Below, one piece after another: positions 4,552-31,223 of a stretch of DNA of 32,000 nt (positions are counted from its first letter, which is position 1; each line of letters opens with the position of its first letter). The notes under the pieces are model-generated. The model was not told the origin of the DNA. It did not search any database and saw only the letters and a list, made by a program, of their open reading frames with translations. Source of the stretch: Pseudovibrio sp. Ad37. Its GTDB lineage: Bacteria; Pseudomonadota; Alphaproteobacteria; Rhizobiales; Stappiaceae. Made by a program: the position numbers and the translations under genes. The stretch is from NCBI RefSeq assembly GCF_001623075.1, contig NZ_LMCF01000121.1, forward strand, positions 7,901 through 39,900, read 5' to 3'.

Positions 4552-4757
4552 GCTGGACGCCAGCAGAATTGGCTGCCCTGAAGAAAGCCTATGCAGCTGG
4601 TGCCACCCGTGTTTCTTATGAAGGCAAGACAGTTGAGTACGATAGCGGTGCCCAGCTTCTTGCCCGGATCCGCATCATTGAAGCGGAAATTGCAGCAACA
4701 AGCGGCAAGAAAAAACCTGTAGCTGGCTTTGCCCGGTTCACCCGCGAGATCCGATGA
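4548..4757 (+). CDS. Head-tail joining protein, lambda gpW family
   Basis: 69 aa, located between GpA terminase and lambda-type portal. Sequence LAALKKAYAAGATRVSYEGKTVEYDS...LARIRIIEAEI is typical of gpW. ATGA overlaps at both ends. Confidence 0.8.
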   Translation: MSWTPAELAALKKAYAAGATRVSYEGKTVEYDSGAQLLARIRIIEAEIAATSGKKKPVAGFARFTREIR

Positions 4758-6292: not shown

Positions 6293-8310
6293 TGCCAGAG
6301 CAAACGTTAGGCCTGCCGCTTTTGGGGCGGGCTGCAGAAGTGCGTGCAGATAGCGTAGACCGCGAGGCACGCACCATTGAGATTGTCTGGACCACGGGTG
6401 CCACCGTCCAGCGCATGCGCTGGGAAGGTTGGGATGAGCTTGTTGAATACGATGAAGAGCTGCAGGTGGATGAGAGGTCCGTTCGCCTGGGGAGGCTGGA
6501 TGCCGGTGCCCCGTTCCTCAATTCCCACAATGCCTGGCGTCTGGAGAATGTGCTGGGTTCTGTTGTTCCAGGCTCCGTGCGTCTTCAAGACGGGAAAGGC
6601 TTTGCCACCATCCGGCTGACAGACGCACCTGATGCCTCAGGCATTGTCCAGCGTATCCTGGAAGGCACCGTGCGCAGTGTTTCCGTTGGCTACCGCGTCC
6701 ACACTTATGAGATCACAGCACAAGAAGGCAAACGTGAACTCTGGCGTGCCACCGACTGGGAGCCTCTGGAAGTCTCAGCAGTTGCTATTCCCGCTGATCC
6801 GGGTGCGCAAACCCGAAGCTCAAATGAGATAGCGCCTTCGTTCAGTCCCTGCACGCTTGTTCGCAACTTGAACCTCTCGTCGCCCTCCAAGGAGTCCGTG
6901 ATGCCAGATACGCCCAATGACAAACCTGCAACAGATACAGTAAGAACCGATCCTCCGAAAACGCCAGAGCAATCAGCGTCACCTCCTGAGGAAGAGCCCA
7001 ATGCGGAGGCAGTGCGCACTGAAGAACGCACCCGTGTCAGCACCATCACACAACTGTGCCGGCGACATAAACTGGAAGATAGCTTTGCTGATGATCTGAT
7101 TGCCCGCGGCGTGTCCCTGGAGACCGCCCGATCAGAAATCCTCGACAAGATCTACGAGGCTGATCCGCTCAAAGGCAAAACCACAGAGCCTGCCCCAGCA
7201 GAAGCACGAGAACAAGACACTCGAGAGATCTCTTATCGCGATGCCCTCACCAATGCGCTGCAACACCGCGCTTCGCCTGATCTCAACAAACTTGGTGAGG
7301 ATGCTCGGCAGTTTCGTGGCATGACACTTTTGGAACTTGCCCGTCATTCTCTGGAGCGGCGCGGCTTCAGCACCCTTGGCATGAGTAAGATGGAGTTGGC
7401 CACTGCCGCCTTTGCCATGCGCTCTGCAGGTTATCACGCCACTTCTGACTTTCCGGCCATTCTTGCCAATGTGGCCGGCAAGACTTTGCGCGATGCTTAT
7501 GACATCACCCCGCGCACCTTCCGCCCCTGGGCCCGGCGTACAACCATCGTTGACTTCAAACCCGTACAGCGCACCCAGCTTGGCGGCGCGCCAGACTTAC
7601 AAAAAGTGCTCGAATCTGGCGAGTTCCAATACGGAACCATGGGCGAAGGCAAAGAAGTCTATGCACTGGCCACCTACGGCAAGATCATCGCTATCACTCG
7701 CCAGGCACTGATAAATGATGATCTGGATGCTTTTACCCGGATCCCGCGCTCTTTTGGTGCATCAGCTGCTGATCTGGAAAGCGACATTGTCTACGCTATC
7801 CTCAAGGACAATCCGGTGATGCAGGATGGGACTGCGTTGTTTCATGCAAAGCATAACAATCTGGGCGCTGCAGCCAGAATTGATGAAACGTCCCTCACCG
7901 CTGCCTACCGCGCCTTTGGCCTGCACAAGGGGCTTGAAGGGAGGCTGATCTCGGTGCAGCCACGCTACATCATCACACCGCCCGGCCCGCGGTCAGTCGA
8001 AGCACGCAAGCAGATCACGGCCACCACACCGGCCAACACCGCGGATGTGAATGCTTATGCTGGCCGCCTTGAACCCATAGAAGAACCGCGCCTGATCCCG
8101 GCATCAGGACAGGATCCCTGGTTCATGGCTGCGGATCCGGCTCGTATTGATACAGTGGAGTTTGCTTATCTGGAGGGCCAGGAAGGTGTCTTTACTGAAA
8201 CCCGCACAGGCTTTGAGGTCGACGGCATTGAGATCAAGGCCAGGCATGACTTTGCCGCCAAGGCCATTGACCACCGCGGGCTCTATAAGAACCCTGGCGC
8301 AGCGGCGTAA
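6292..8310 (+). CDS. Prohead protease / major capsid protein fusion
   Basis: The N-terminal ~190 aa resemble an HK97-type prohead serine protease. A P/E/T-rich linker follows, then a C-terminal ~340 aa HK97-fold capsid-like domain (FAYLEGQEGVF...GIEIKARHDF). It is one uninterrupted ORF. Confidence 0.85.
   Translation: MPEQTLGLPLLGRAAEVRADSVDREARTIEIVWTTGATVQRMRWEGWDELVEYDEELQVDERSVRLGRLDAGAPFLNSHNAWRLENVLGSVVPGSVRLQDGKGFATIRLTDAPDASGIVQRILEGTVRSVSVGYRVHTYEITAQEGKRELWRATDWEPLEVSAVAIPADPGAQTRSSNEIAPSFSPCTLVRNLNLSSPSKESVMPDTPNDKPATDTVRTDPPKTPEQSASPPEEEPNAEAVRTEERTRVSTITQLCRRHKLEDSFADDLIARGVSLETARSEILDKIYEADPLKGKTTEPAPAEAREQDTREISYRDALTNALQHRASPDLNKLGEDARQFRGMTLLELARHSLERRGFSTLGMSKMELATAAFAMRSAGYHATSDFPAILANVAGKTLRDAYDITPRTFRPWARRTTIVDFKPVQRTQLGGAPDLQKVLESGEFQYGTMGEGKEVYALATYGKIIAITRQALINDDLDAFTRIPRSFGASAADLESDIVYAILKDNPVMQDGTALFHAKHNNLGAAARIDETSLTAAYRAFGLHKGLEGRLISVQPRYIITPPGPRSVEARKQITATTPANTADVNAYAGRLEPIEEPRLIPASGQDPWFMAADPARIDTVEFAYLEGQEGVFTETRTGFEVDGIEIKARHDFAAKAIDHRGLYKNPGAAA
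6889..6903 (+). promoter_or_regulatory. Candidate internal translation start (SD AAGGAG 6889-6894, in-frame ATG 6901-6903) inside the protease-capsid ORF
   Basis: Perfect AAGGAG with a 6-nt spacer to an in-frame Met (codon 204), located just after the protease domain. Confidence 0.4.
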
Positions 8311-12593: not shown

Positions 12594-12781
12594 GACTGGG
12601 CGGTCAGGTGCGCACCATCTCCACCATGAACGGCTATGTGGTTCTGGGCTGGGACATGGGAGCTGCCTTAAAGCTTGCTGATAATCTTGATGCCAATCCA
12701 TATCTGGCAGCTTTGATCCTGCCCGAGATCGAGCAGATCGCATGTGCCAAGATTAACGAGAGGCTGCAGGCGGATGGTTGA
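12590..12781 (+). CDS. Small tail assembly protein / distal part of a frameshifted chaperone (gpT-like segment)
   Basis: 63-aa ORF in the -1 frame relative to the chaperone gene. It has its own ATG in an ATGA overlap and ends 8 nt inside the tape measure gene. Confidence 0.5.
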   Translation: MRLGGQVRTISTMNGYVVLGWDMGAALKLADNLDANPYLAALILPEIEQIACAKINERLQADG

Positions 12782-14777
12782 GCGCAAGGTCTCTGTCAGG
12801 CTAGCAGCTATTGGCGGTAAAGCCGTCAAAGATGATCTGGCTGCCATCGGCAAGACTGGTAGTGTGTCTCTTACCCAGATCGGCTCGGCCAGCGAGGCTG
12901 CTAATGCGGGACTTGATGAGGTCTCTTTAGCTGTTGCCAGAGGCCGAGAACAATTGGAACAGCTTGCCGCAAAAGCTGCGCGATCAGCCAATGCCCTCAG
13001 AGCAACGGCAACAGCCACCACACCGCTGATTGATCAGATCAATCGTATGAGCGGCGTGACACCCGCGATTGGCAAAACCACAGCAGAGTTTCTCGCCCAA
13101 GGCCAGGCACTTGATGATCTACGGGCCAGATACAATCCTGTCTTTGGTGTGATCCGCAGATACCGGCAAGCCATCTCAGAGATTAAAGCCGCCCATCTGG
13201 AAGGCGCGCTTTCTGCAAATGAGATGACAGCTGCTATTTCTCGCGAACGCAGCGAGACCTTGCAAAGCATTGCCGCCCTTAAGAACCGAACAACGGCTAT
13301 CACCCGTATGGCCCGTGCATCGCGAGGTGCGACCCTGCGCCTGCAGCAGATGTTCTTTCAGGTGAATGATATTGGCGTCTCGCTGGCCGGTGGGCAGAAC
13401 CCGTTTCTGGTGCTGGCCCAGCAAGGCACGCAGATTGCCCAGATCTATGGTTTTGGTAATGGCGGCGTCTCTGGAGCCTTCAAAGATCTAAGATCCCTTC
13501 TTGTCGGTGTGGCGCGCAGGTTCTGGCCAGTGGCTGTTGCCGTGGGTGTGGTGACAGCTGCCCTTGCAGGTTTGACCTATGAGATCAACCAGACCACCGA
13601 TGTGTCTGTCACCATGGGTGATACTTTGTTGGCGGTCTGGCAACTCATCCGTGACGGGTTTAATGCGCTGGTCGCTCCTCTTATCAATGCGATTGCTCCA
13701 TGGTTTGAAGCAGCCTGGACCCGTGTGGTGGCTGCCACCAAAGCAACCGGTAACTTCATCATCAACGAGATGAAGATCACTTATGAGATCATCACCACCA
13801 TCTGGGAGCAATTGCCAGCTGCCTTTGCAGCACTCATGATCGGAGCCACCAATGCAGTCATCCGTGGTATCAATCTGATGATCCGCAAAACCACCCAGGG
13901 CCTTAACACGCTAAGCCGAGCGGCTAATCGGGTTCTATCCAATATTCCAGGCCTTGATGAAAACTTCCGTATTGGCCAGCTCAAAAACATCCAGATTGAG
14001 CAGATCGCCAATCCTTATGCCGATCAGGTCGCGACTGCTTCCAGAGCGCTGGATGAGCTCGTTACTGAAATCGCGAAGCAAGATCCCATGGGTGAGTTGT
14101 TTTCTGCCATCAAAACCCGCGCTGTCCAGAACGCCCTCAGCCGCATTGCTGAAACGGCAGATAAAACCGGCAAGGCAGTCAAAAAAGCTGCAGAAGAGGC
14201 CAAGGTCGGATGGGAGGCAGCACTTGCATCAATCGAGGCCTATGTGGCCAGTGCCCGCGATATTGGCGCTGCCTTTGGCGATCGCATTGCCAAAGTGTTT
14301 TCAGATGGCGAGCAAGCCATTGCGAACTTCGTTCAAACCGGCAAGTTGGAGTTTAAAAGCCTCATCACCTCGCTCATTGCCGATATGGCCAAGCTGGCAG
14401 CCCGGCGCTTTATCTTTGGACCCATTGCCTCGGGGCTTTCTGCGGGCTTGAGCAATCCATCCAGCGGTCTGCAAAACCTGCTGTCTGGCTTCTTCAAGTC
14501 GCTCCTGACGCCGACGACAAGTTTTGCCGGTGGTGGGCATACGGGCTCGGCCCCGCGCACCGGCGGGCTTGATGGCCGCGGCGGGTTCCTCGCGCTGATG
14601 CATCCGCAAGAGCGGATCATTGATGAGTTCAGAGGTGGCAGGCAGCAGCAACAACAATCTATGCCGCCCGTTATCGTCAATATCGAAACCCGCGATGCAG
14701 AGTCCTTTCGCCAATCCAGAACACAGGTGGCAGCTGACATTCAGCGGGTGGTGGCTCGCGGTCGCCGAGGGCTTTAA
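12774..14777 (+). CDS. Tail tape measure protein
   Basis: About 667 aa from the ATG at 12774 (the track start, GTG 12744, is also possible). Ala/Gly-rich helical protein with internal hydrophobic segments, in the canonical position. Confidence 0.85.
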   Translation: MVERKVSVRLAAIGGKAVKDDLAAIGKTGSVSLTQIGSASEAANAGLDEVSLAVARGREQLEQLAAKAARSANALRATATATTPLIDQINRMSGVTPAIGKTTAEFLAQGQALDDLRARYNPVFGVIRRYRQAISEIKAAHLEGALSANEMTAAISRERSETLQSIAALKNRTTAITRMARASRGATLRLQQMFFQVNDIGVSLAGGQNPFLVLAQQGTQIAQIYGFGNGGVSGAFKDLRSLLVGVARRFWPVAVAVGVVTAALAGLTYEINQTTDVSVTMGDTLLAVWQLIRDGFNALVAPLINAIAPWFEAAWTRVVAATKATGNFIINEMKITYEIITTIWEQLPAAFAALMIGATNAVIRGINLMIRKTTQGLNTLSRAANRVLSNIPGLDENFRIGQLKNIQIEQIANPYADQVATASRALDELVTEIAKQDPMGELFSAIKTRAVQNALSRIAETADKTGKAVKKAAEEAKVGWEAALASIEAYVASARDIGAAFGDRIAKVFSDGEQAIANFVQTGKLEFKSLITSLIADMAKLAARRFIFGPIASGLSAGLSNPSSGLQNLLSGFFKSLLTPTTSFAGGGHTGSAPRTGGLDGRGGFLALMHPQERIIDEFRGGRQQQQQSMPPVIVNIETRDAESFRQSRTQVAADIQRVVARGRRGL

Positions 14778-17281: not shown

Positions 17282-20200
17282 ATGGCAACACTTGTCCTTG
17301 GCGCTGTTGGCACCGCCGTGGGCGGAGCCATTGGCGGCTCGTTTCTTGGCGTGACCGCAGCCACAATCGGTGGTGCAATCGGCGCAGCAGCTGGCTCGTA
17401 TATTGACAGCTGGCTGATCAGCACGACGCTTCCTGACCAGACCATCGAGGGCCAGCGACTTGATCGCCTGCAAGTCACCACCTCAACAGAGGGAGCTGTC
17501 ATTCCCCGTATGTTTGGCCGCATGAGGATCGGTGGCAATATCATCTGGGCAACTGACTTTCGCGAGGAGATCAACCAGCAAACCCAAGGTGGCGGTAAAG
17601 GCGGCGGACCGAAGGTCACCACAACCACCTATGCCTACTATGCCTCGTTTGCCATCGCACTGTGCGAAGGGGTTCTTACCGGCATTGGTCGCATCTGGGC
17701 AGATGGTGAGCTTATGGATCTGCAAGGTGTCACCTGGCGCTGGTATGCAGGCGATGAGGCCCAAGAGCCAGATCCCCTCATCAAGGCTAAGATGAACGCG
17801 GCACCGGCCTATCGCGGCACAGCCTATCTGGTCTTTGAAGAGCTGCTATTGGAAAGCTATGGCAACCGCATTCCGCAGATCACGGTGGAAGTGTTTCGCC
17901 CGCTCTTGGACGGCACACCGGAAGGCCAGTTGCAATCGGCCACGTTGATCCCGGCATCTGGCGAATATGTCTATGCCACACGGCAGGTGACCAAATCCGA
18001 AGGCGGCGCCAAGACAGCCGGCATCAACGTAAATGCAGAAGCAACACAAGCCGATCTCATCGGTGCCCTGGACCGCCTGCAAGCCTCAGCCCCAAACATC
18101 CAAAGCATCTCGCTTGTGGTTGCCTGGTTTGGAGATGACCTTAGATGCGAGACTTGCAAGATCCGCCCAGGTGTCGATCAACCGACCAAGAATGCCAGCA
18201 CGTCCTGGAACGTCAATGGTGTCAGTCGGTCTGATGCTTTTCTGGTCAGCCGTGATGATAAGGGAGATCCTGTCTTCGGCGGAACACCTGCCGACTTTTC
18301 TATTGTCGAGGCAATCAAGGAAATAAAGGCCCGTGGCCTGCGGGTTACCTTCTATCCCTTCATCCTGATGGATATCCCGCCAAACAACACGCTGCCAGAT
18401 CCTTATAGCGATGATGCAAGCACGATCGGTCAACCCGCCTATCCCTGGCGTGGCAGGATAACATGCTCTCCTGCCCCTGGTTTTGCTGGCTCTCCGGACA
18501 AAAGCGAAGCAGCAGTTGGACAAGTGTCTGCGCTGTTTGGTTCTGCTGCTATTGGTGATTTCAGTGTGAGCGGGACAAGCGTTTCATGGACGGGACCATC
18601 GGGTGATTGGGGCCTGCGCCGCATGATCCTGCACTATGCCCATCTGTGCAAAGCTGCTGGCGGAGTGGATGCGTTTCTCATCGCCTCAGAAATGCGCGTG
18701 CTTAATCAAGTGCGAGGACCAGCAAACAGCTTTTCCGCAATTGAGCAATGGAGCAGCTTACTGAGCGATGTACGCTCTGTTGTAGGTTCAGATACCAAGC
18801 TCTCTTATGCCGCCGACTGGTCCGAGTATTTCGGCTTCAGGTCGGCAGGTGACAGCGGAGACCTCTTCTTTCATCTTGACCCAATCTGGGCTCATGAAGC
18901 CTGTGATTTTATCGGTATCGACAACTACATGCCGCTTTCCGATTGGCGCGATGGTTTTGACCATCTGGATGCGCAGATCTACCCGCACATATTCGATCAG
19001 AGTTATTTGAAGGGCAACATTGCCGGCGGCGAAGGTTTTGACTGGTTTTATGCAAGCGATGCTGATCGCATTGCTCAGGTCAGAACGCCAATCACAGATG
19101 GCACCCACAATAAGCCTTGGGTGTTTCGCTATAAGGACCTACAGAGCTGGTGGAGCAATCAGCATTATGATCGCCCAGGCGGTGTGGAGGGGACAGAGCC
19201 AACGGCCTGGATACCACAGAGCAAACCCATCTGGTTTACCGAGTTCGGCTGTCCTGCTGTAGACCACGCCACCAACCAGCCCAACGTATTCATTGATCTC
19301 AAATCATCAGAATCCAAAGCGCCCTACTTTTCTCGTGCCTGGCGTGATGATGCCATCCAGCGGGCTTACTTGAATGCCACGCTGAGCTATTGGCAAGAGC
19401 CGGGCAACAATCCCACATCAAGCGCCTATGACGGTCCCATGCTGGACCTTGGCAATTGCTCTGCCTGGACATGGGATGCCCGGCCCTATCCGTTCTTTCC
19501 AGAACTCACCAACATCTGGTCAGATGGTGACAACTGGCGACTGGGGCACTGGCTGGGAGGACGGCTCGGGGCTGTTGGGCTTGGTGCGCTGGTCAAACAC
19601 CTATGTAAACGCGCTGGGCTGAGCGGAGATCTGATCGACACCTCAGATCTTTATGGTGCCGTTGAAGGCTATGTGATTTCTGCGTTGCAAAGCCCGCGTG
19701 CATCAATTGCCGTGCTGGCCCGTCACTTCGGCTTTGATGCCGTGGAGAGCGAAGGCATTCTGCATTTTAAGGTGCGTGGGCGTGGTGCCGTCAAACGCCT
19801 TGAGCTTGATGATCTGGTGGCAGCACCAAAAGACACTGAGCCCATCGAGTTTGAGCGCGCGCAGGAAACCGAACTGCCCCAGGCGCTGAAATGGTCTGTC
19901 GCCCGCGCCGATGAAGACTATGACGCCATTCAGGTGGAAGCGCAGCGGGTAACAGTGCAGGCGAGCCGTATCTCTTCTGAAAACTTCCCGCTTGCCGTTG
20001 CCCCGGAAGAAGCGGAGCGCCGGGTGCGCCGCGCCCTGCAAGAAGCCTGGGTTGGACGCGACGGTGCCAGCTTTGCGCTACCGCCGTCAGAGCTTGCCCT
20101 TGATCCAACAGACGTGGTTGCGCTGGACCATGATGGGCGCAGCTATGATCTGCAGCTCTTGAGTGTCAATGATGGCCTGGAGCGCAAGGTGACCAGCATC

Positions 20201-21244
20201 CAGCAAGATCGCCAAGTCTACGATATGCCACCTGGACCATCGCGGAAAAGAACAGATGGAGCGCTTTCGCAGGCGGTTGTATTCGGAAAACCTCTGTTTG
20301 CGTTTCTCGATCTGCCGCAGCTCTCAGACAACTCCCCTGCTCATCAGCCGTTGATGGCAGCTTATGCCGATCCCTGGCCGGGTGTTCTCAATGTCTATCG
20401 CAGTCAAGCAGACGCAGGATTCAAACGGGTTGCCGAGATCACCACGCCAGCCCAGTTTGGGGTGACACTAGAGCCCCTTAAGCGAGGTCCTACCTCCCGG
20501 TTTGATCTTGGCAGTGAATTGGTAATCTCAGTCTCTTCAGGAACAATCGAGAGCATTCCAGACTTAGAGCTCCTTGCGGGCGGCAATGCTTTTGCCATTG
20601 AGACTGCTCCAAACACCTGGGAGATCATTCAGGCCAGCAGAGCAGAGCTCTTAGCGCCTAGCACCTACAAACTCTCACGGCTGCTTCGCGGTCAACGTGG
20701 TACCGAGAGTTCTATCGTCGATACACTCCCGGCAAGCGCAAGGATCATCCGTCTTGATGATAATTTGGTTCCGGCTCCCATCACTTTGAGCGAGATAAGC
20801 TTGCCGTTCCGGTGGCGTATCGTGCCCGGAAGAGCGTCGCTTTCTGATCCTGCCACGTTGGCATTAGGCTTTACGCCGGAAGCCAATGGTTTGCGTCCAT
20901 TGTCTCCGGTTCATGTTACACAACCTATTCGCAAAGGACGTCTTCCCGGTGACCTCGCTCTCTTCTGGATCAGACGGTCCCGTTTGCCCGAAGCGGACAG
21001 CTGGCTGTCACGCGATGTGCCACTTGGCGAAGCCATCGAGGCCTATGAGGTGGAGGTTCTGAAAGACGGCTCAGTAATCCGCACGCTGAGTTCAACAACC
21101 TCCAGCGTGATTTATATCGGCACGCAGCAGATTGAGGACTTTGGAGCAATACTTTCGTCTGGAGATACGCTTCTCATCCGCATCTACCAGCTCTCCAACA
21201 CTTTAGGCCGCGGCATGCCGCTTACCACCACTTTGCACTTCTGA
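17282..21244 (+). CDS. Host specificity / baseplate multidomain tail protein (RcGTA g15 homologue, gpJ-like)
   Basis: 1320 aa. The glycine-rich N-terminus MATLVLGAVGTAVGGAIGG and the following region (RMFGRMRIGGNIIWATDF, YYASFAIALCEG) are typical of g15-type proteins. Synteny follows g12-g14. Confidence 0.92.
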   Translation: MATLVLGAVGTAVGGAIGGSFLGVTAATIGGAIGAAAGSYIDSWLISTTLPDQTIEGQRLDRLQVTTSTEGAVIPRMFGRMRIGGNIIWATDFREEINQQTQGGGKGGGPKVTTTTYAYYASFAIALCEGVLTGIGRIWADGELMDLQGVTWRWYAGDEAQEPDPLIKAKMNAAPAYRGTAYLVFEELLLESYGNRIPQITVEVFRPLLDGTPEGQLQSATLIPASGEYVYATRQVTKSEGGAKTAGINVNAEATQADLIGALDRLQASAPNIQSISLVVAWFGDDLRCETCKIRPGVDQPTKNASTSWNVNGVSRSDAFLVSRDDKGDPVFGGTPADFSIVEAIKEIKARGLRVTFYPFILMDIPPNNTLPDPYSDDASTIGQPAYPWRGRITCSPAPGFAGSPDKSEAAVGQVSALFGSAAIGDFSVSGTSVSWTGPSGDWGLRRMILHYAHLCKAAGGVDAFLIASEMRVLNQVRGPANSFSAIEQWSSLLSDVRSVVGSDTKLSYAADWSEYFGFRSAGDSGDLFFHLDPIWAHEACDFIGIDNYMPLSDWRDGFDHLDAQIYPHIFDQSYLKGNIAGGEGFDWFYASDADRIAQVRTPITDGTHNKPWVFRYKDLQSWWSNQHYDRPGGVEGTEPTAWIPQSKPIWFTEFGCPAVDHATNQPNVFIDLKSSESKAPYFSRAWRDDAIQRAYLNATLSYWQEPGNNPTSSAYDGPMLDLGNCSAWTWDARPYPFFPELTNIWSDGDNWRLGHWLGGRLGAVGLGALVKHLCKRAGLSGDLIDTSDLYGAVEGYVISALQSPRASIAVLARHFGFDAVESEGILHFKVRGRGAVKRLELDDLVAAPKDTEPIEFERAQETELPQALKWSVARADEDYDAIQVEAQRVTVQASRISSENFPLAVAPEEAERRVRRALQEAWVGRDGASFALPPSELALDPTDVVALDHDGRSYDLQLLSVNDGLERKVTSIQQDRQVYDMPPGPSRKRTDGALSQAVVFGKPLFAFLDLPQLSDNSPAHQPLMAAYADPWPGVLNVYRSQADAGFKRVAEITTPAQFGVTLEPLKRGPTSRFDLGSELVISVSSGTIESIPDLELLAGGNAFAIETAPNTWEIIQASRAELLAPSTYKLSRLLRGQRGTESSIVDTLPASARIIRLDDNLVPAPITLSEISLPFRWRIVPGRASLSDPATLALGFTPEANGLRPLSPVHVTQPIRKGRLPGDLALFWIRRSRLPEADSWLSRDVPLGEAIEAYEVEVLKDGSVIRTLSSTTSSVIYIGTQQIEDFGAILSSGDTLLIRIYQLSNTLGRGMPLTTTLHF

Positions 21245-22432: not shown

Positions 22433-22450
22433 ATGTCTGGAGGACTAACC

Positions 22451-23098
22451 ATGACGTACACCACACGGGACATCCAAGCCCGACTTGCTGCGCTGAGCTA
22501 TGATCCCGGTCCCATCGATGGTCTTGATGGACCAAAGACAAAAGCTGCGATAGCTGAGGCGTTGAAAGCGCGGAACGTGAAGCGCGTCGAGGAGTTGTTT
22601 CATCGCTCTGGCCTTCATCGCATTATCTTGCATTGGACAGCAGGCGCGGACGGGCTCATTGAGCTGGAGCGGCAGCACTACCACATCATCATCGATCGCT
22701 CAGGCCGAACACATGCAGGTGCTCTAAAACCAGAGGCCAATGCCAATTGCCTCGATGGCCGCTATGCCGCTCATACTAGAGCACTTAACACCGGGTCCAT
22801 CGGCGTTGCCCTTGATGCCATGTCGGGCGCAATAGAGTCTCCTTTCGATCCCGGCAAGTATCCAATCACGCAAGTTCAAGTTCAGGCACTAGCGGAGACT
22901 GTTGCTGATCTCTGTGAAACCTACCAGATCCCGGTGAGCCCATACTCCGTTCTTACCCATGCAGAAGTTCAGCCGACGCTGGGCGTCAAACAACGCAGCA
23001 AATGGGATATCGCCTGGCTGCCAGATATGACTGAGCCGGAAAATCCGGTTGATGTGGGCAACAAGCTGCGTTCGCTCATTGCAACTGCAGGGCTCTGA
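22451..23098 (+). CDS. Endolysin: peptidoglycan-binding domain + N-acetylmuramoyl-L-alanine amidase (Amidase_2/PGRP type)
   Basis: I prefer the ATG at 22451 (GGAGGA 6 nt upstream) over the track start at 22433. PG_binding_1-like IQARLAALSYDPGPIDGLDGPKTKAAI, then ILHWTAG...HYHIIIDRSG...AAHTRALNTGSIGVAL...LTHAEV. Confidence 0.85.
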   Translation: MTYTTRDIQARLAALSYDPGPIDGLDGPKTKAAIAEALKARNVKRVEELFHRSGLHRIILHWTAGADGLIELERQHYHIIIDRSGRTHAGALKPEANANCLDGRYAAHTRALNTGSIGVALDAMSGAIESPFDPGKYPITQVQVQALAETVADLCETYQIPVSPYSVLTHAEVQPTLGVKQRSKWDIAWLPDMTEPENPVDVGNKLRSLIATAGL

Positions 23099-23287: not shown

Positions 23288-26200
23288 TTACTCAACGTCT
23301 GATTGATCGAACTGAGTTTGCTTCTTCTCTGCATACATCAGATCAAGTAACAAGTTGGAGATCTCAGCGGCTTTCTCTGGGTTTGATAGGAGATGCATCA
23401 TCATTTTCTGGTGCGCCTCACCACTCGTAATAATGGCATCGTCTACTGCATTTTGGAAACCGCCTAGCTTTGCCTGATCTTTGGTGTTGTTTTCAATCTG
23501 AGTCATAACAAGCGGATTTTCAGAGATTTTGTCTTTGAGAACGTACAGGTAATTGACCTTATCTTTTTCTGTAAGCCCATCTTCAGCAAACAGGTCATTC
23601 ACACGCTCAATAATCTGCGAGAGGAATTCTTCTTTGGGATCTTTAGATTTGCCACTGCCAAGCTCGTCAGCTGGCTCCAATCCCTCACCTTCACCGCTTA
23701 CCAACTGCAAATCCTGCTGCTTAAGCTTCGACAGTCGGTAGTGACTCAGTTCGACATTGTCCAGATCGATTACATCATCCTCAATTGCAGCTTCGCGCAG
23801 CAAAGGACGCAGGCTTCGTGCAAACAGGCTAAGCTTTTCCAACTCCTTATCATCATAGTCCACGATTTGTGAGATGAACTCATAAAACCGCACATACGTG
23901 CCCAAATCCTTCTTGAAGATTTCCAGCCCGTCTTTTTCTTTCTTGCAGTCTTTGAACGTTGTATCCGTGTTGGCAATCAGGACAGGATCGCCAGCCTTTT
24001 TGGCGCGCTCGAACATATCCTTTGAACGCTTATAGGCTTCAACGGCTGACTTGTAGCGGCTGGTCCAACGTTCCACCGCAGGCTTACAGATATTTGAGAT
24101 GGCCGCACTGCTCTTGTTCTTTTGCAAGAAGGCAATGCAGTACTGCTCCACCTCGCTCCATAGGAAAATTCCAGAGCTTCTGAGTTTTTCTGAGAGTTCG
24201 AAGACGAGATTAGGATTAGACACATCCATGAGTTCAGCGGTCTGATAATACTTCTGAAACGGGGCTAGAACGTCTTCTGGCTCATTGAAGAAGTCCAGCA
24301 CAAACGTGCCGGATTCTGCTTTACCCTGATAGGTACGGTTGAGACGAGAAAGAGTTTGAACACATTCCACTCCGGCCAGTTTTTTATCCACGTACATGGC
24401 GCAGAGCTTGGGCTGATCAAACCCAGTCTGGAATTTATTCGCAACGATCATCACCTGATACTCGTCACCATCAAAAGCTTTGCGCATGTCGCGGCCTTTC
24501 AGGCCTGGGTTCATGCTGGTTTCAGTGAACTTCTCGCCAACCAATCCTGCTGAGTTCGGGTCTTTATCAGTAAACTCCACCTCACCGGAAAATGCAGCCA
24601 TTGAGTGGATTTTATCGTAGCCTTTGGCTTTTGTGTATTTGTCGAAAGCTAGCTTAAAACGAACAGCCTCTTTGCGTGAGCTGGTAACCACCATCGCTTT
24701 GGCTTGTCCGCCTAACAAGCCCATCACATTATCTTTGAAGTGCTCAACAATGATCTGCACTTTTTGAGCAATATTGTAGTCATGCAGCCGTACCCACTGG
24801 TTCAGCTTGACCTTGGCTTTTTTGCTTTCAACCTCGTCGTCTTTTTCCTGTATCTTAAGAGCGAGATTATAGGCGACTTTGTAGTTGGTGTAGTTTTTCA
24901 GCACATCGAGAATGAAGCCTTCCTCAATCGCCTGACGCATGGAATATACGTGGTAAGCCACTGGGATATTGGTGCGAGATGGCACCTCATCAGGCTTTGG
25001 CAGACGGCCAAACAGCTCTAGCGTTTTAGCTTTCGGTGTTGCGGTAAAGGCAAAATAACTTAGGTTTTGCGAGGCGCTGCGTGAGGCCACAGCAGCATCA
25101 AGAATATCTTCGCTGCTCAGCTCTTCTTCACCAGAGCTTTCCTCTTTCATCAGCACTTCTTTGAGCTGACGTGCGGTAGAGCCAGTCTGTGAAGAATGCG
25201 CTTCATCGGCAATAATGGCATAGCTACGCGTCTTCAAACTTGTGCTGTTCTCAATCGCTTTGAGCACAAACGGGAAGGTCTGGATGGTGACGATAATAAT
25301 GGGCTGAGAAACCTCCAGCGCTTTAGCCAGCTTCTCAGACTTAGAGCCATCACCTTCCTTGTTGTTGATGCGGCCAACAACACCGTCCACATGCTCAAAC
25401 TGATAGATTGTGTCTTGCAGCTGGTCATCAAGCACTGTGCGGTCGGTCACGATGATGACGGAGTTGAACACCTTTTCGCCGTTGTCACCATAGAGCGAAG
25501 AGAGTTGATGCGCGGTCCATGCAATAGAATTGGATTTGCCAGAGCCAGCGCTGTGCTGAATAAGGTATTTTTGCCCAGAACCTTCGCTTTTCGCCGCATC
25601 AACAAGTTTGGTGACCACATCCCACTGATGATAGCGCGGGAAGATCATGGTCTCTTTTTTGATCTTCCTGCCCTGCCAGTCTTCCTTTTCCTCAATCTGT
25701 AGATGGATAAACCGGGCGAGGATGTTTAAAAGATTGTCGGGCTGCAGCACCTCTTGCCACAAATAGGCTGTGGCATATTCATTTTTGTCTTCTGGAACAT
25801 CATTGCCAGCCGCTCCGTCCTTCGCCCCTTTGTTGAAGGGGAGGAAATATGTGTCTTTGCCCGCCAGTTTGGTGGTCATATAGACCTCATACTGGCTCAC
25901 AGCAAAATGAACGAGCGCACCGCGTTTGAATGTGAGCAACGGCTCTGGCTTGCGCGTTTCAGGGTCAATAGGCAAACGAGTGGTTTTATACTGCCGCTTG
26001 GCGCTGTCTACCGCCTGCTTGAACTCGGATTTCAGCTCCAGCGTGGCAATTGGTAAGCCGTTGACGAACAATACCAGATCGATGCGCCAGTTCTTTGCCT
26101 TCTTTCCGGTTACGGTCAGATGCTCTGCTGTAGCCCAGGGGCTGTAAACCAGCTCTGGCACCACACGCAAACGGTTTTGTTTATAGCGCGCCAGCGTGTC

Positions 26201-26566
26201 GGGGTTGAGGTCGTGCTCTGGCTTAAACTGACACAAGCTAAACCGGGCGTTGCGGTCTTTCAGGCCATGGCGCAACACACCAAGCGTCCCGTAAAGGCGC
26301 ATTTGCTTGTCGGCGGCTCTTGGGTCAGCTTTGCCAAGCTGCGTTGCAACGCATTCAAGGAATTTCTGCTCGCTGTTACCGGGGTGGTTCCTAGCAAACT
26401 TCTGCCATTCCCCATCCTGCGTTTCTTTGACAAAGCTGAGCAGGTCTTCTTCATAAAGGGCAAGGGCGCGATTGTAGCCAGCAGGCGAACCAAGCAACCA
26501 GCCATTGGCACACAACTGGTTGATAATATCGCGCTGGAAATGCACTTCAGCAGCCTTGTCGCTCAT
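23288..26566 (-). CDS. hsdR: Type I restriction enzyme R subunit
   Basis: 1092 aa. N-terminal PD-(D/E)XK motif (DLVLFVNGLPIATLELKS), helicase motif I HSAGSGKSNS, DEAH box IIADEAHSSQ, and a long helical C-terminal region. Confidence 0.95.
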   Translation of the reverse strand: MSDKAAEVHFQRDIINQLCANGWLLGSPAGYNRALALYEEDLLSFVKETQDGEWQKFARNHPGNSEQKFLECVATQLGKADPRAADKQMRLYGTLGVLRHGLKDRNARFSLCQFKPEHDLNPDTLARYKQNRLRVVPELVYSPWATAEHLTVTGKKAKNWRIDLVLFVNGLPIATLELKSEFKQAVDSAKRQYKTTRLPIDPETRKPEPLLTFKRGALVHFAVSQYEVYMTTKLAGKDTYFLPFNKGAKDGAAGNDVPEDKNEYATAYLWQEVLQPDNLLNILARFIHLQIEEKEDWQGRKIKKETMIFPRYHQWDVVTKLVDAAKSEGSGQKYLIQHSAGSGKSNSIAWTAHQLSSLYGDNGEKVFNSVIIVTDRTVLDDQLQDTIYQFEHVDGVVGRINNKEGDGSKSEKLAKALEVSQPIIIVTIQTFPFVLKAIENSTSLKTRSYAIIADEAHSSQTGSTARQLKEVLMKEESSGEEELSSEDILDAAVASRSASQNLSYFAFTATPKAKTLELFGRLPKPDEVPSRTNIPVAYHVYSMRQAIEEGFILDVLKNYTNYKVAYNLALKIQEKDDEVESKKAKVKLNQWVRLHDYNIAQKVQIIVEHFKDNVMGLLGGQAKAMVVTSSRKEAVRFKLAFDKYTKAKGYDKIHSMAAFSGEVEFTDKDPNSAGLVGEKFTETSMNPGLKGRDMRKAFDGDEYQVMIVANKFQTGFDQPKLCAMYVDKKLAGVECVQTLSRLNRTYQGKAESGTFVLDFFNEPEDVLAPFQKYYQTAELMDVSNPNLVFELSEKLRSSGIFLWSEVEQYCIAFLQKNKSSAAISNICKPAVERWTSRYKSAVEAYKRSKDMFERAKKAGDPVLIANTDTTFKDCKKEKDGLEIFKKDLGTYVRFYEFISQIVDYDDKELEKLSLFARSLRPLLREAAIEDDVIDLDNVELSHYRLSKLKQQDLQLVSGEGEGLEPADELGSGKSKDPKEEFLSQIIERVNDLFAEDGLTEKDKVNYLYVLKDKISENPLVMTQIENNTKDQAKLGGFQNAVDDAIITSGEAHQKMMMHLLSNPEKAAEISNLLLDLMYAEKKQTQFDQSDVE

Positions 26567-26617
26567 TCCTAAAATCCCTTAAATATCAATTCATCGCGGC
26601 GTAAACCCGCCATTATC

Positions 26618-27562
26618 TCAGGCGTCTTCCAACTGTGGTTCCGGTGTTCCAAGCAGTTGCTCAGCTTCCCATTGCTTGTAGGTCTTGTTGGTGCCTTCCA
26701 GTTTCCAGGATTTTTGACCATTGGAAGAACGACCATTCACGATCGCCGCCGCAGCGCTGGGGCTTTTAAAGGCGTAATCAGCTGCAAAGTGCGCACTGCT
26801 ACCCGCGCTGACAATAACACCTGTTTTATCCAGCTCCTTGCGCAAGGTTTCATAGGATGTGACGCGCCCGCCTTTGCCTTCCCAGCGCGACCGCACAACC
26901 GAGCCCTTTTCAACGATGAACTCACCCTCCTCCAAACGCGCTTTTGCGCAGAGACCGTGTTTTGGTGTGAGCAATTCAAAGCGCACAGAACTGGCATTTT
27001 GCACTGTCGAAGCTAAGGAACTGGTAGTGAACGCTTGCTCTGGTGCCGCGCTGCTGCGTTTACTTTCGACAAATAAGTCAATGCCGAGGGCGGGAAGGAT
27101 CATGTAAAGGTTTTCCAAAAAACCTTCCATATTGGCGATGGTGGCCTCGCTGACCTGTGGTTGTTGTGGAATTTGGGCATTGTCAAGGATCACACGGCCA
27201 ACAGAGGCGGCGCGCTCATAGCTGCGCGCCTCTAAAAATCGGACGTGGGCTTTGTTCAGCTTGTTATCAGCTGTGGTGACAAACACCGCCTTCGTCCACC
27301 AGTCTTTTTTGGAATCGTGGGTGCGAATGCGTTGGCCAATATCCTCCGTCTCGCCAATATAGGCGGTGGGCTCGCCGTCCTGTTCACCCAGCAGAATATA
27401 AATGCCGGTGTAGCTGGCCTCCGCCCGCACCAGTGCTTGCTTGATCTGCGTGCGAGGGACGAGGAGCACATGGCCTGTCCAGTTGAACAGCTCTGCCACC
27501 AGAAGGCCATCGGGGCGGCCATCGACAAAAAACAGCTCCAGTGATCGGCCTTTGGTGGTCAT
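26618..27562 (-). CDS. GIY-YIG nuclease domain protein with a DUF4357-like C-terminus, embedded in the Type I operon
   Basis: 314 aa from the ATG at 27562 (GGGAGAA upstream; the track start, TTG 27574, is less likely). Motifs TGIYILLGE...AYIGETEDIGQRIRTH...FLEARSYE, with C-terminal YAFKSPSAAAAIVNGRSSNGQKSWK. Confidence 0.85.
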   Translation of the reverse strand: MTTKGRSLELFFVDGRPDGLLVAELFNWTGHVLLVPRTQIKQALVRAEASYTGIYILLGEQDGEPTAYIGETEDIGQRIRTHDSKKDWWTKAVFVTTADNKLNKAHVRFLEARSYERAASVGRVILDNAQIPQQPQVSEATIANMEGFLENLYMILPALGIDLFVESKRSSAAPEQAFTTSSLASTVQNASSVRFELLTPKHGLCAKARLEEGEFIVEKGSVVRSRWEGKGGRVTSYETLRKELDKTGVIVSAGSSAHFAADYAFKSPSAAAAIVNGRSSNGQKSWKLEGTNKTYKQWEAEQLLGTPEPQLEDA

Positions 27563-27609
27563 GTGTTCTCCCAATCGTCCACTTGTGCCCGTATCTGCAA
27601 GTTTGTGCC

Positions 27610-28902
27610 CTACGCAGATGCTTGCGTTAAACTTGCAGATTCTTCAGCAGGTTGAAAGGTGCCTTTCGGTGGTTCCCAGTCGCGCACATCAATCTTGCCT
27701 GTCACCGCAGCCGAGATAAGGGCTGTGCGACGTTCTTTGAGGAGGGTGATGGCGGATTTGGCTTTTGAGACCAATTCTTGCGTAAGACTATCTGATTTTA
27801 CTAAGAATGCGGCAATCTCTTTTTGCTCCTTATATGGTGGCAAAGTCAAAGAAAGCTTTTCAAATTTCTCAGGTTCTAAGCGCCACTGGCTTGGCCGGAT
27901 TCCATTCGAAATTGATTTGTAGACATCGGGCATGATTTTGCAGCGCAATGCAAAATGAATGTATTGAGAATGCTCTGAGTGGATAGCTCGATAAACAACG
28001 TAATCTGGGCTAGTTATTCCTTTAAATGTTGAAACTCCAAGTGAACCTTGCCATGCCTTCATTTTGTTGATGACGAGATCGCCAACCTCAATCAACTGAT
28101 ATGATGTGAGATCCTCTGGTGTTTTGTTGTTGTTGTCGTCTCGAGAGGATTTCTTGATCACGCCAAAGTCTCGATAGACAGAGAGAACTTCTAAGTCGGG
28201 ATGATCTTGCCTCTTTGATTGAAGAAAGAGGTGCTTCAACTGCGTGGCGTCCCAATGCTCCGGCACATCGCCGAGCCAGTCGATGCCGGAGGGGCGTAAG
28301 GGGGCGTCTGGGTTCAGGCCTTTGGTGACGGCGTGAGAGATCACCGCCTGCCGCTTTTCTTCCAGCAACCCAATCAACCGCTCCTGCCTCTCTATCAACC
28401 GGTCAATCTTCAAAGTTTCATGGTCGAGAAACCTGGCGATCTGTTGTTGTTCCGTAAACCGCTTTGGTATGGCGAAGGAGTAGTTTCCTAGATGCTCTTG
28501 GGTCATGCTAGGCAAAGCTGTATTAGTGGAGTATCTATCGAACTGAATAGTTGTTGCCAAGTAGTATAGAAATTTGGCGGGAGTATCAGGGGATACTTCC
28601 GTGTAATACATTGTATCCACGGTCCAAAATGGCTCGTTAATGTATAAGGGGCGGTCGATAGTTCCTTTTCGCCCTAACAATACAGATTCTTTGCAGTACA
28701 TTGGTTTTGCTGCGTAGGTAAACTGTCCTCCTGAACCTAGGACAGGATAGCCACTTTCTGCTTCAATTTGCTTATAGTCTTGCCCATTGCGAATAGACGC
28801 AAGGTGCTTTAGGCGCTTTACACCCCACCCATTCGGAATCTCTCCAAGCCACTCTAAGCCGCTCTCTTTGTACGCCGGATATGCCTTATACTTGCCAGCC
28901 AT
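27610..28902 (-). CDS. hsdS: Type I restriction enzyme S (specificity) subunit with two target recognition domains
   Basis: 430 aa. Conserved central (IARFLDHETLKIDRLIERQERLIGLLEEKRQAVISHAVTKGL) and C-terminal (IAAFLVKSDSLTQELVSKAKSAITLLKERRTALISAAVTGKIDV) helices flank two variable TRDs. TAATG overlap with hsdM. Confidence 0.93.
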   Translation of the reverse strand: MAGKYKAYPAYKESGLEWLGEIPNGWGVKRLKHLASIRNGQDYKQIEAESGYPVLGSGGQFTYAAKPMYCKESVLLGRKGTIDRPLYINEPFWTVDTMYYTEVSPDTPAKFLYYLATTIQFDRYSTNTALPSMTQEHLGNYSFAIPKRFTEQQQIARFLDHETLKIDRLIERQERLIGLLEEKRQAVISHAVTKGLNPDAPLRPSGIDWLGDVPEHWDATQLKHLFLQSKRQDHPDLEVLSVYRDFGVIKKSSRDDNNNKTPEDLTSYQLIEVGDLVINKMKAWQGSLGVSTFKGITSPDYVVYRAIHSEHSQYIHFALRCKIMPDVYKSISNGIRPSQWRLEPEKFEKLSLTLPPYKEQKEIAAFLVKSDSLTQELVSKAKSAITLLKERRTALISAAVTGKIDVRDWEPPKGTFQPAEESASLTQASA

Positions 28903-31223
28903 TAGGAGTGAACCTCCTGAAGCAGCTGCATGATTTCTGCGCTCACTGCGTCCAGTTCAGCGTCGATCTCTTCCAGTGCCCGTGGGGGCTGGTAGACATA
29001 AAAATGTCGGTTAAAGGGGATTTCATAGCCGACAATGCCGATTTCAAAGTCACGCTCATCTTTCTTGCCTGCGTCAATCCACGCTTCTGGCACATGAGGC
29101 TTTACCTCGCGGGCGAAGTAATCCTCATTAGCCTCATTGACGGAGCGGGACGGGTCCAGCGGCACGTTTTCATTATCGCGCAGGTCGCCATCTGGCTTGT
29201 ACTCCACACTCTGCCCGTTCACAGCAAACAGGCCATAGGTTGGGTTCGGTGCCGTGGCCTTGTGGACCTTTTTGATAACAGGAGCAGCCTGCGGGTTCTT
29301 CCAGCTGACAGCGGTCGTGATTTGCTTTTTGGCAGCTGTTTCCAGCTTGATGGCGGTTTGCTTTTGTGCGGCCTTCAGCGTGTCGTCAAAGGCGTTCATG
29401 TCGTCATGCTGATCTGTGCCGATAACCGCTTGCAGGGCTTTGGCGCTGAGCAGAATGGCCTTCTGTCCTGTCCATGTATCCCGCTTCAGCAAGTCCTTGA
29501 TATGCTTTTCCTTCAGCTCTGCAAAGCTGGCTTTGATGTGGGCGCGGATTTCTGTCTCATGCTCCGCCAGATCGCCATAGCGTGGGCAGTCCGGTGCGTC
29601 TGTCCAGTTCCCCCCATAAGTCTCAAAGATCCACTGCATCACAGTACCCAGTGGTTTTGGAGCAAAGCGCAGGGTCTCCAATCGCTCATCAGAAAACTGG
29701 AAGCTTTCGCGCAAGGGGCGTTCAATGGTCAGGCGGCGATAACCAAACTCATGTGATTGGAAGATTTTGGAGGCAAAGGTTTTCAGCTCAGCCTTCTTGC
29801 CATTTGCAGACTTGCGCCCGCGTGTGCTGGCAGGTTCTTCTGCCTTGTCCAGCTCTTGCACCTCCACCACCTCAAATGCGCCGAAACAGCGGGTGATGGT
29901 GCGGATGTCGTCTTCGCTCATCTGGTTGCGTTTGGAGCCAAGAGACTTGCGCATCTTGGAATAAAGGTTCGCCCCGTTTATGAGCTGTACCTGCCCTTTG
30001 CGCTCAGCGCTCTTTTTATTGCTGAGCACCCACACATAAGTGGCAATGCCGGTGTTGTAGAACATATCCGTTGGCAGCGCGATGATGGCTTCCAGCAGGT
30101 CAGCCTCCAAGATGTAACGGCGGATTTCACTCTCACCTGAGCCAGCGCCACCCGTAAACAGCGGAGACCCATTGAGGATGATGCCGATACGCCCGCCGCC
30201 TTCATGCGTGTCCCGTAGCTTGGAAATGAGGTGCATGAGGAATAGCAGCGACCCATCTGACACACGCGGCAGGCCGGGGCCGAAGCGTCCATCATGGCCT
30301 TTCAGGGTGTGCTCGTCCTTGATGGTGCCTTCAATCTTTTTCCAGTCCACCCCAAATGGTGGGTTGGAGAGCATATAATCAAACTTGTCGGCGTAGAGCT
30401 GGTCCTGGCTGAGCGTGTTGCCAAGCTTGATATTATCAACTTCCTGCCCCTTGATCAGCATATCCGCTTTACAAATGGCATAACTCTCCGGGTTCAGCTC
30501 CTGCCCAAAACCGCGCATAACCGCTTGCGGGTTAAGCTCGTGCACATACTCCATACCAGAAGACAAAAACCCGCCAGTCCCTGCGGTGGGATCATAAATG
30601 GTGCGAATAATACCCGGCTTTGTCAGCGCGTCATCATCCTCCATAAACACCAGTGACGTGGTGAGGCGAACGATATCGCGCGGGGTGAAGTGTTCACCAG
30701 CCGTCTCGTTGGAACCTTCCGCAAAGCGCCGGATCAGTTCCTCAAACACCAGCCCCATTTCATGGTTGGAGATGTTTTGCGGGCTGAGATCTGCCTCACG
30801 AACGCGCTGTACCACTTTGTAGAGCAGATTGGCCTCTGCCAGTTGAGCGATAAACTCGGCAAACTTGAAGTGCTCGAAGATCTCGCGGGCATCCTTGGAG
30901 AAGCCCTGAATGTAGTTCTCCAGATTGTCCTTGATGCCCGTTTCGCCAAGCTTGGACATATCCATTCTGGAGATGTTGTAGAACGACAACCCAGCGGCCC
31001 GCAGCAACAGCTTCTCCTGCGCCTCTTCTGGCAAGTTCATCGACTTGAGCTTCTCAGCCTGCGCTAACACCGCATCCTTACTGCCTTCCAGTACGCACTC
31101 AAGGCGGCGCAGCAGTGTAAACGGCAGAATAACGCGGCCATACTGGCTTTGCTTAAAATCTCCGCGCAGCAAATCAGCAAGAGACCAGATGAAGGCAGCT
31201 AGGTTATTGGTTTGATGAGACAC
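28902..31223 (-). CDS. hsdM: Type I restriction enzyme M subunit (N6-adenine MTase), long form of 773 aa
   Basis: HsdM N-terminal region ([37 protein letters not shown]), motif [12 protein letters not shown], motif [15 protein letters not shown] start. About 250 aa of C-terminal extension beyond the catalytic core. Confidence 0.95.

Follow-up and report, generated by a model that had tools for sequence, protein, structure and literature searches.

A Type I restriction–modification (R-M) operon of Pseudovibrio sp. Ad37 (Alphaproteobacteria; Rhizobiales; Stappiaceae) contains an additional gene, referred to here as X, between hsdS and hsdR. It lies in a stretch of 32,000 nucleotides – positions 7,901 to 39,900 of the forward strand of contig NZ_LMCF01000121.1, assembly GCF_001623075.1 – which we call the window and to which coordinates refer unless another locus is named. 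All four genes run on the minus strand: hsdM (28902..31223; 773 amino acids; Pfam N6_Mtase and HsdM_N; PADLOC MTase_I, E 1.6e-285), hsdS (27610..28902; 430 amino acids; Pfam Methylase_S; PADLOC Specificity_I, E 2e-114), X (26618..27562) and hsdR (23288..26566; 1092 amino acids; Pfam SWI2_SNF2, ResIII, T1R_D3-like and HSDR_N; PADLOC REase_I). This order, proposed in a preliminary description made from the sequence alone, is backed by Pfam, PADLOC and NCBIfam, and the 1-nt overlap of hsdM and hsdS (TAATG) that accompanied it is present in the sequence.

The open reading frame finder, and with it the preliminary description, placed X at 26618-27574, with a TTG start at 27574 and a product of 318 amino acids. 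The frame stands as listed, but the true start is likely the ATG at 27562, since a GGGAG lies upstream of it, the N-termini of homologues agree with it and a 314-residue NCBI protein from Pseudovibrio sp. Ad37 matches the resulting 314-residue product with 100% identity. Measured from this ATG, the spacers of 47 and 51 nt that were reported on either side of X are correct.

As judged from its sequence, X encodes an intact and catalytically complete GIY-YIG nuclease of predicted activity, followed by a DUF4357/RAMA-like domain. It is a member of a family already catalogued as candidate defence, with a function as yet uncharacterised, and it forms an optional cassette in the hsdS–hsdR slot. We tentatively favour the view – giving it somewhat less than an even chance – that X is an autonomous, DNA-targeting, restriction-like nuclease, which would be expressed alongside the Type I system and add another layer of defence.

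A nuclease core and a RAMA-like domain

The AlphaFold model of X (overall predicted local distance difference test score, pLDDT, 84.6) has four parts, which agree with the pattern of conservation in an alignment of 120 homologues of 51–75% identity. The N-terminal segment (amino acids 1-50; 27413..27562) consists of three modelled strands and one helix (pLDDT 66–92). Its motif FNWTGH (F26, N27, W28, T29, G30 and H31) is invariant in the 120 homologues, and a Pfam search returned no family for the N-terminal 52 residues even at E<=10. In the model, the N-terminal strand region packs against the nuclease core, while the C-terminal domain stands apart.

The catalytic core (amino acids 51-160; 27083..27412) is defined by Pfam PF01541, by conservation and by a fold match. 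GIY-YIG is matched over amino acids 53-117 with E 1.8e-5 and 25.4–26.6 bits against a cut-off of 22.6, and the full GIY-YIG set – Y55, Y68, R78, H82, E111 and N128 – is invariant or nearly so in the 120 homologues. Of the arginines in QRIRTH, the first, R78, is the catalytic one; R80 is variable. Across the window and the 80 loci discussed below, the catalytic residues are kept in 80 of 81 aligned copies. The best fold match in the PDB is 2lwf, the GIY-YIG N-domain of AtGRXS16, with a probability of 0.97 but an E-value of only 0.035; sequence searches of the PDB with profiles of the whole of X and of its C-terminal domain gave chance-level matches only. NCBIfam has no model covering X, and scans of X with Pfam, PADLOC and NCBIfam returned no PrrC-like or NTPase match and no regulatory domain. 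The core is followed by a gap-rich, unconserved linker (amino acids 161-189; 26996..27082), of which residues 172-189 are predicted to be disordered (pLDDT <50).

The last part is an alpha+beta domain (amino acids 190-305; 26648..26995; domain model pLDDT 89) that we describe as RAMA-like. Within it, DUF4357 (Pfam PF14267) covers amino acids 241-291 (26690-26842), with 54.7–57.7 bits against a cut-off of 38.4 and E about 1e-15 to 9.8e-15. The preliminary description's assignment of GIY-YIG and DUF4357 thus holds for both domains, which score above their Pfam cut-offs, and all the motifs that it quoted are present. RAMA itself (PF18755) is matched by the X of the window below threshold (16.2 bits, E 0.011, against a cut-off of 35.2 bits). 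When the C-terminal domains of 40 relatives were searched against Pfam permissively, DUF4357 was found in all of them and RAMA in 24, again below threshold (best E 8.7e-4). In longer relatives, retrieved by an exhaustive HMMER search, the RAMA matches coincide with the DUF4357 residues, as in P0165, where RAMA reaches 60.5 bits against the cut-off of 35.2. Since the two matches share residues in these proteins, DUF4357 would in effect be the core of the RAMA domain.

Some relatives of X carry two to six tandem DUF4357/RAMA copies after the nuclease (P0122, P0165, P0169, P0191, P0196 and P0209), an arrangement that would suit multivalent DNA binding. One of them, P0209 (780 amino acids), has an extra GreA/GreB C-terminal domain.

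RAMA – the name stands for restriction enzyme adenine methylase associated – was defined by fusions to N6-adenine methylases as well as to REase, HNH, URI (GIY-YIG), ParB, T5orf172 and McrB modules; its role as a reader of methylation is a prediction (PMC4738411). DUF4357, for its part, has been reported on GmrSD, GIY-YIG, T5orf172 and McrB proteins (PMC4619093; PMC11090510), and solved RAMA domains, those of CcrM and MPND, contact the backbone of double-stranded DNA (dsDNA) without sequence specificity and with no confirmed preference for N6-methyladenine (PMC9963953). The PADLOC model for DUF3780 has a C-terminal domain in common with X, and DUF3780–RAMA fusions occur in R-M-like systems. 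By analogy with these proteins, the C-terminal domain of X is probably a portable DNA-binding or reader module common to several kinds of restriction nuclease; it is not evidently one that binds Hsd proteins. A nuclease and a putative reader of modified DNA in one chain is an architecture that fits Type IV enzymes, the reader role being predicted.

Type I operons, Type III-like systems and solo copies

When each species was represented by a single genome, scanning yielded 275 relatives of X, of which the best-scoring 80 loci were analysed over 6 kb around X, with profiles built from the Hsd proteins of the window and from Pfam-verified Mod/Res proteins. X sits in a Type I locus in 49 of them – 36 complete systems and 13 partial ones, mostly truncated contigs or other Type I families – and beside Type III-like Mod/Res genes in four, while 27 lack both kinds of gene over this 6-kb range. 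By our own estimate, not a computation, a random gene would be expected in fewer than one Type I placement in 80, and the enrichment beside hsdS and hsdR that had been anticipated is strongly confirmed across these species-level loci. Most often the genes follow one another as hsdM-hsdS-X-hsdR on a single strand. Plasmids of Rhodococcus, Acinetobacter, Parabacteroides and Prosthecochloris carry more distant homologues (28–42% identity), which also lie in Type I operons, with two gene orders among them (M-S-X-R and R-S-AAA-M-X), and the link between X and Type I systems spans Actinomycetota, Bacteroidota, Chlorobiota and Pseudomonadota.

The start of X overlaps the upstream stop by 4 nt in 38 of 50 R-M-linked loci, and spacers around X are found only in Pseudovibrio. 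The preliminary description had taken these spacers as the mark of a cassette dropped into the operon: the spacers are a Pseudovibrio peculiarity, and the idea of a cassette fits this lineage. The four closest plasmid relatives of HsdR (67–74% identity), from Comamonas, Shewanella, Vibrio and Acinetobacter, carry a plain hsdM-hsdS-hsdR with an empty slot, and X is therefore an optional cassette. Among X-less relatives of the system, other defence genes lie just downstream of hsdR, namely a DarTG-like pair of DUF4433 and macro-domain genes in Vibrio campbellii (L091 10253-11942) and an AAA ATPase with McrC in Acinetobacter baumannii (L092 10339-14204). Pairwise distances tell how closely cassette and operon keep together: for X, the Spearman correlation is 0.50 with HsdM and 0.56 with HsdR (none of 500 permutations as high), below the 0.80 between HsdM and HsdR themselves. 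X thus moves mostly together with its operon, but undergoes reshuffling more frequently.

The slot can hold further cargo. A DUF4268 protein lies between X and hsdR in six loci (360–394 amino acids, with the DUF4268 at the C-terminus; among them L033 10852-12036, L037, L044, L054 and L068), and a Schlafen/AlbA_2 protein, which also has HATPase_c_4, in one (L057); DUF4268 has otherwise been reported on GmrSD Type IV enzymes. Other neighbours of X include SIR2, TIR, SIR2-NB-ARC-TPR, McrB-like and DUF4268 proteins. In L003 (6783-16832) and L012, X belongs to an R-M-like cluster of five genes that consists of an SNF2-type helicase (1068 amino acids), X, DUF4391, an N6_N4 methyltransferase and a Res-type helicase–endonuclease, and its upstream junction overlaps the preceding gene.

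Such contexts bring in an alternative to an autonomous nuclease, in which X would be an auxiliary or back-up effector of ATP-dependent R-M that writes N6-methyladenine (m6A), cooperating with Type I or Type III-like machinery. X could cut DNA engaged by the translocase, or its RAMA-like domain could read the methylation state set by the partner methyltransferase, and solo copies would have as distant partners, acting in trans, R-M systems or orphan methyltransferases encoded at other places in the genome. The 53 of 80 loci that adjoin Type I or Mod/Res genes speak for it, as do the persistence of the link across four phyla and differing gene orders, the 4-nt overlaps, the significant correlation of X and Hsd distances, the helicase-X-DUF4391-Mod-Res cluster of L003 and L012, the C-terminal domain shared with the PADLOC DUF3780 model together with the DUF3780–RAMA fusions of R-M-like systems, and the very name of RAMA, given for its tie to adenine-methylase R-M systems (PMC4738411). 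It fits less well with the closest Type I relatives, which do without X, and with the intact, conserved copies that stand alone in unrelated operons and on plasmids. A Rosetta-stone check of ten unusually long relatives found only tandem DUF4357/RAMA copies and the one GreA/GreB fusion, with no fusion to an Hsd or Mod domain in any of the ten. HsdR, moreover, has a nuclease motif of its own (D-x13-ELK), which is intact in the translation as judged by eye; the idea of X as a substitute for a dead HsdR nuclease is rejected on this ground. On balance we consider this auxiliary role improbable, though worth weighing.

About as doubtful, in our estimation, is a broader form of the same idea: that X is wired to m6A-writing, ATP-dependent R-M of the Type I and Type III-like kinds, as a DNA-targeting counterpart of PrrC or as a methylation-reading auxiliary nuclease, its RAMA-like domain and FNWTGH segment acting on DNA that is engaged by, or escapes, the partner enzyme. 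What keeps an R-M-linked role alive is the high rate of embedding, the translational coupling and the spread over Type I families and Type III-like systems.

The solo copies are central to the preference for an autonomous nuclease. Three plasmid copies are solo, and several other contexts are housekeeping operons or pairs: murC-murB-X-ddl (L015 9033-11808; L058 is likely the same), a place between a carbamoyltransferase-family and an amidohydrolase-family gene (pyrB/pyrC-like; L069 8706-12201), phnJ-X (L073 9120-10903), X-moeA (L079 9507-12063), and positions adjoining prolyl oligopeptidase (L051, L071) or ilvC (L076). Several of the copies in housekeeping operons show 4-nt start/stop overlaps, with no recombinase nearby. 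Other solo copies are found near defence or mobile genes: a SIR2-NB-ARC-TPR protein, a TIR protein and an integrase, as well as a DUF4011/MTES_1575 helicase–nuclease, AAA_13 and SIR2 proteins. Every catalytic and signature residue is kept in all 26 intact solo copies, and solo and embedded copies interleave in similarity (solo L017 is 98% identical to embedded L009). Among the 80 loci, the sole decayed X is in L031 (1398-2477), where it is split into open reading frames of 131 and 154 amino acids.

These copies weigh against the proposal of the preliminary description that X may be a latent nuclease which the R-M complex holds in check. Its premise was sound: prrC lies in the same hsdS–hsdR slot, which also harbours TgvAB and DarTG2. 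On this proposal X would be a PrrC-like guard, latent under the Type I complex and freed as a suicidal or second-line nuclease by a phage anti-restriction protein, and the invariant FNWTGH segment could be its partner-binding surface; the junctions also suggest that X is tightly co-expressed with hsdS. But PrrC is hardly ever found outside Type I loci, whereas about a third of X loci have no R-M genes within 6 kb and yet retain an intact active site, and an intact solo X would be lethal as an unrestrained toxin, which makes a guard unlikely. Furthermore, X occurs with Type III-like and unrelated systems, lacks a PADLOC PrrC-like match, an NTPase and a regulatory domain, and ends in a restriction-type DNA module that is not evidently one for binding Hsd proteins, so that the latent-guard mechanism is not supported. 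We regard it as quite unlikely – a narrower version of the R-M-linked role, and less likely than an autonomous nuclease.

Solo copies in conserved operons could also be the work of a selfish gene. The classic homing endonucleases include GIY-YIG enzymes that bind DNA through a C-terminal domain, and X might be a free-standing enzyme of that type, or an addiction element, that would spread through cleavage of X-less alleles and bring its host no benefit. Its precise insertion between conserved genes (murB/ddl, the pyrB/pyrC-like pair and hsdS/hsdR), its presence/absence polymorphism in close Type I relatives and the lack of a linked recombinase would all accord with this. The family, by contrast, is very large and strongly constrained, with 1,491 clusters (50% identity) at E<=1e-30, invariant catalytic and signature residues and one decayed copy in 80; its homologues appear in only three of 50,697 phage records, its neighbours are enriched for defence genes, and Pfam found no NUMOD or helix-turn-helix domain in X, nor was an intron or intein context found. 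Of the explanations weighed here, selfish homing strikes us as the least credible and very unlikely to be right.

Spacers and surroundings of the operon

The spacer between hsdS and X (27563..27609, minus strand; 47 nt) holds the GGGAG ribosome-binding site, and that between X and hsdR (26567..26617, minus strand; 51 nt) has as its hsdR-proximal end AAGGGATTT...ATG, which by eye resembles the hsdS–hsdR spacer of the X-less Shewanella plasmid pXY8M38-1 (L090). The two were also considered as the ends of a mobile element, which was rejected: they have no duplication or common repeat between them, and the spacer-free junctions of X in most relatives argue against it as well. A scan of both spacers for promoters and terminators found no such sites, and the RNA fold of the 51-nt spacer was not significant. 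Just upstream of X, around the stop codon of hsdS, RNA folding revealed a perfect 12-bp stem (ATCTGCAAGTTT/AAACTTGCAGAT; 27593..27640, minus strand) of −27 kcal/mol (z −3.05; none of 200 shuffles equally stable); this inverted repeat is not obviously there in the Pseudovibrio relatives L001 and L002. The GC content of X (0.545) is close to that of hsdM (0.540) and of the whole window (0.539), and hence gives no compositional sign of recent import.

Two peculiarities concern the Hsd proteins. HsdM is unusually long, with about 320 C-terminal residues (amino acids ~455-773) beyond N6_Mtase that have no Pfam match; the methyltransferases of the X-less plasmid relatives are about as long. The C-terminal ~85 residues of HsdR (amino acids 994-1077) are matched by another PADLOC candidate model, PDC-S15 (E 6.8e-9), so that this candidate may be a detached C-terminal module of HsdR.

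On the plus strand, a block of prophage late genes occupies 615-23098 of the window: a ParB–DNA methyltransferase fusion (615-1967), large terminase (2566-4551), portal (4754-6292), head protease/major head protein (6292-8310), then a minor tail protein, tape measure (12744-14777), a tail protein of 1320 amino acids (17282-21244) and endolysin (22433-23098). The operon with X converges on the end of this block, 190 nt from the endolysin gene, and may be prophage cargo or be placed at the prophage boundary.

A proposed further defence layer within the Type I operon

In the autonomous reading, X would be a self-sufficient DNA endonuclease made of a GIY-YIG domain, a flexible linker and a RAMA-type domain that binds or reads dsDNA. 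The RAMA-like domain would bind DNA, and the enzyme would cut foreign DNA against which the Type I enzyme does not work well – candidates are modified or hypermethylated phage DNA, or DNA with another feature. X is presumably transcribed as part of the operon, and in most lineages its translation is coupled to that of the gene upstream, so that both layers of defence would be expressed and transferred together. That X works by itself is argued by the persistence of intact solo copies in the murB-ddl operon and on R-M-free plasmids; the lack of a PrrC-like or NTPase domain and the combination of GIY-YIG and RAMA-type modules, an architecture of single-chain restriction nucleases, point the same way. 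While its domains, catalytic residues, embedding, optionality and solo occurrence are observed, the DNA substrate, the role in defence, the independence from Hsd proteins and the trigger are parts of the reading that we infer.

A defence context is suggested by the R-M and other defence genes beside X and by PADLOC, which lists the family as a single-gene candidate, PDC-S14. All five PDC-S14 models match X, the best over its full length (E 2.4e-112; amino acids 1-303 against model positions 21-314 of 320), and X is simply a member, with the same embedding in Type I loci and no structural difference. It also matches phrog_12629 (E 2e-77). Clustered at 50% identity, the family comprises 8,445 clusters at E<=1e-3 and 4,526 at E<=1e-10, with most members about 300 amino acids long. 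The PDC set stems from the guilt-by-embedding survey of Payne et al. 2024, which named 145 candidates inside BREX, DISARM or Type I R-M loci and tested only seven Hma-embedded systems; the text of that preprint and the supplementary files examined make no mention of PDC-S14, DUF4357 or GIY-YIG. Papers on the Type I systems of Zymomonas and PAO1 likewise do not mention a GIY-YIG gene in the hsdS–hsdR slot, and an NEB paper names fusions of the kind "GIY-YIG-RAMA" among those that await study (PMC11037411). That the family is uncharacterised, as first described, is right as far as the literature search for experiments goes, but it had already been catalogued and flagged.

Precedents for embedding in the same slot lend the autonomous reading support. 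TgvAB, a GmrSD-like Type IV system in the VPI-2 Type I R-M locus of Vibrio cholerae, covers phages that the Type I enzyme misses and is an independent module nested in the operon (PMC11411939); unlike X, it is a two-protein system whose nuclease is of the DUF262/HNH type and whose specificity for hypermodified cytosine is proven. DUF4357 also occurs on GmrSD-family proteins (PMC4619093). DarTG2, described as occupying a likely hotspot for defence cargo, is a toxin–antitoxin pair that ADP-ribosylates DNA and is unrelated to X in sequence. PrrC, in the Type Ic locus EcoprrI, is like X a nuclease encoded within, and co-expressed with, a Type I operon, but it resembles ABC ATPases, cuts tRNA(Lys) and is kept masked by the R-M complex, whereas X is of the GIY-YIG DNA type with a RAMA-like domain and often occurs alone. 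A parallel in domain logic comes from the wH-GIY-YIG fusions, proven m6A-dependent Type IV enzymes, of which Ahi29725I and Apa233I combine GIY-YIG with a modification reader in a single chain as X would; their reader, with a demonstrated preference for Gm6ATC, is an N-terminal winged helix, in place of the C-terminal RAMA-like domain of X (PMC11037411). As for the RAMA domains of CcrM and MPND, they have the same fusion partners, and the Pfam RAMA match overlaps DUF4357 in relatives of X, but the X of the window falls below the RAMA cut-off.

Several observations weigh against an autonomous nuclease. The tie to Type I systems may be functional: about 61% of the sampled loci, from several phyla, gene orders and Type I families and usually with the 4-nt overlap, are Type I, much more than the roughly 6% for TgvAB (79 of 1,341 homologues embedded). 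Taking the best 80 of 275 loci biases the sample towards close relatives. A fold search with the C-terminal domain gave no convincing PDB match, and neither the CcrM nor the MPND RAMA structure was among its top 50 hits. No experiments on PDC-S14, DUF4357 or GIY-YIG-RAMA proteins came up in the literature search, and in a panel of P. aeruginosa strains PDC-S14 was, if anything, commoner in phage-susceptible ones (8 of 14). For MPND, the preference for m6A that had been reported of RAMA could not be repeated (PMC9963953). A purely m6A-dependent mode of X would also be awkward, and this is a real difficulty, because the hosts' own Type I enzymes, through the adjacent HsdM, write m6A. Alphaproteobacteria, to which most hosts of X belong, also carry CcrM adenine methylation. 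Finally, HsdS is hypervariable (mean distance 0.66) but the RAMA-like domain shows high conservation, so that this domain cannot read the cognate Type I site; any reading of modification would have to be context-specific, or the trigger would have to be something else.

To a specialist, X will come as no surprise, but it makes a good and cheap experimental target. In roughly every second related species of the sample, its family is the resident of the hsdS–hsdR slot. Should X prove to depend on Type I enzymes, it would be a common fourth component, and many Type I systems would be four-component machines. If it is instead an autonomous, restriction-like nuclease, it would become the first characterised fusion of RAMA with a nuclease, and would settle a point on which the work on MPND and CcrM gave no final answer, namely whether RAMA is a reader of DNA methylation.

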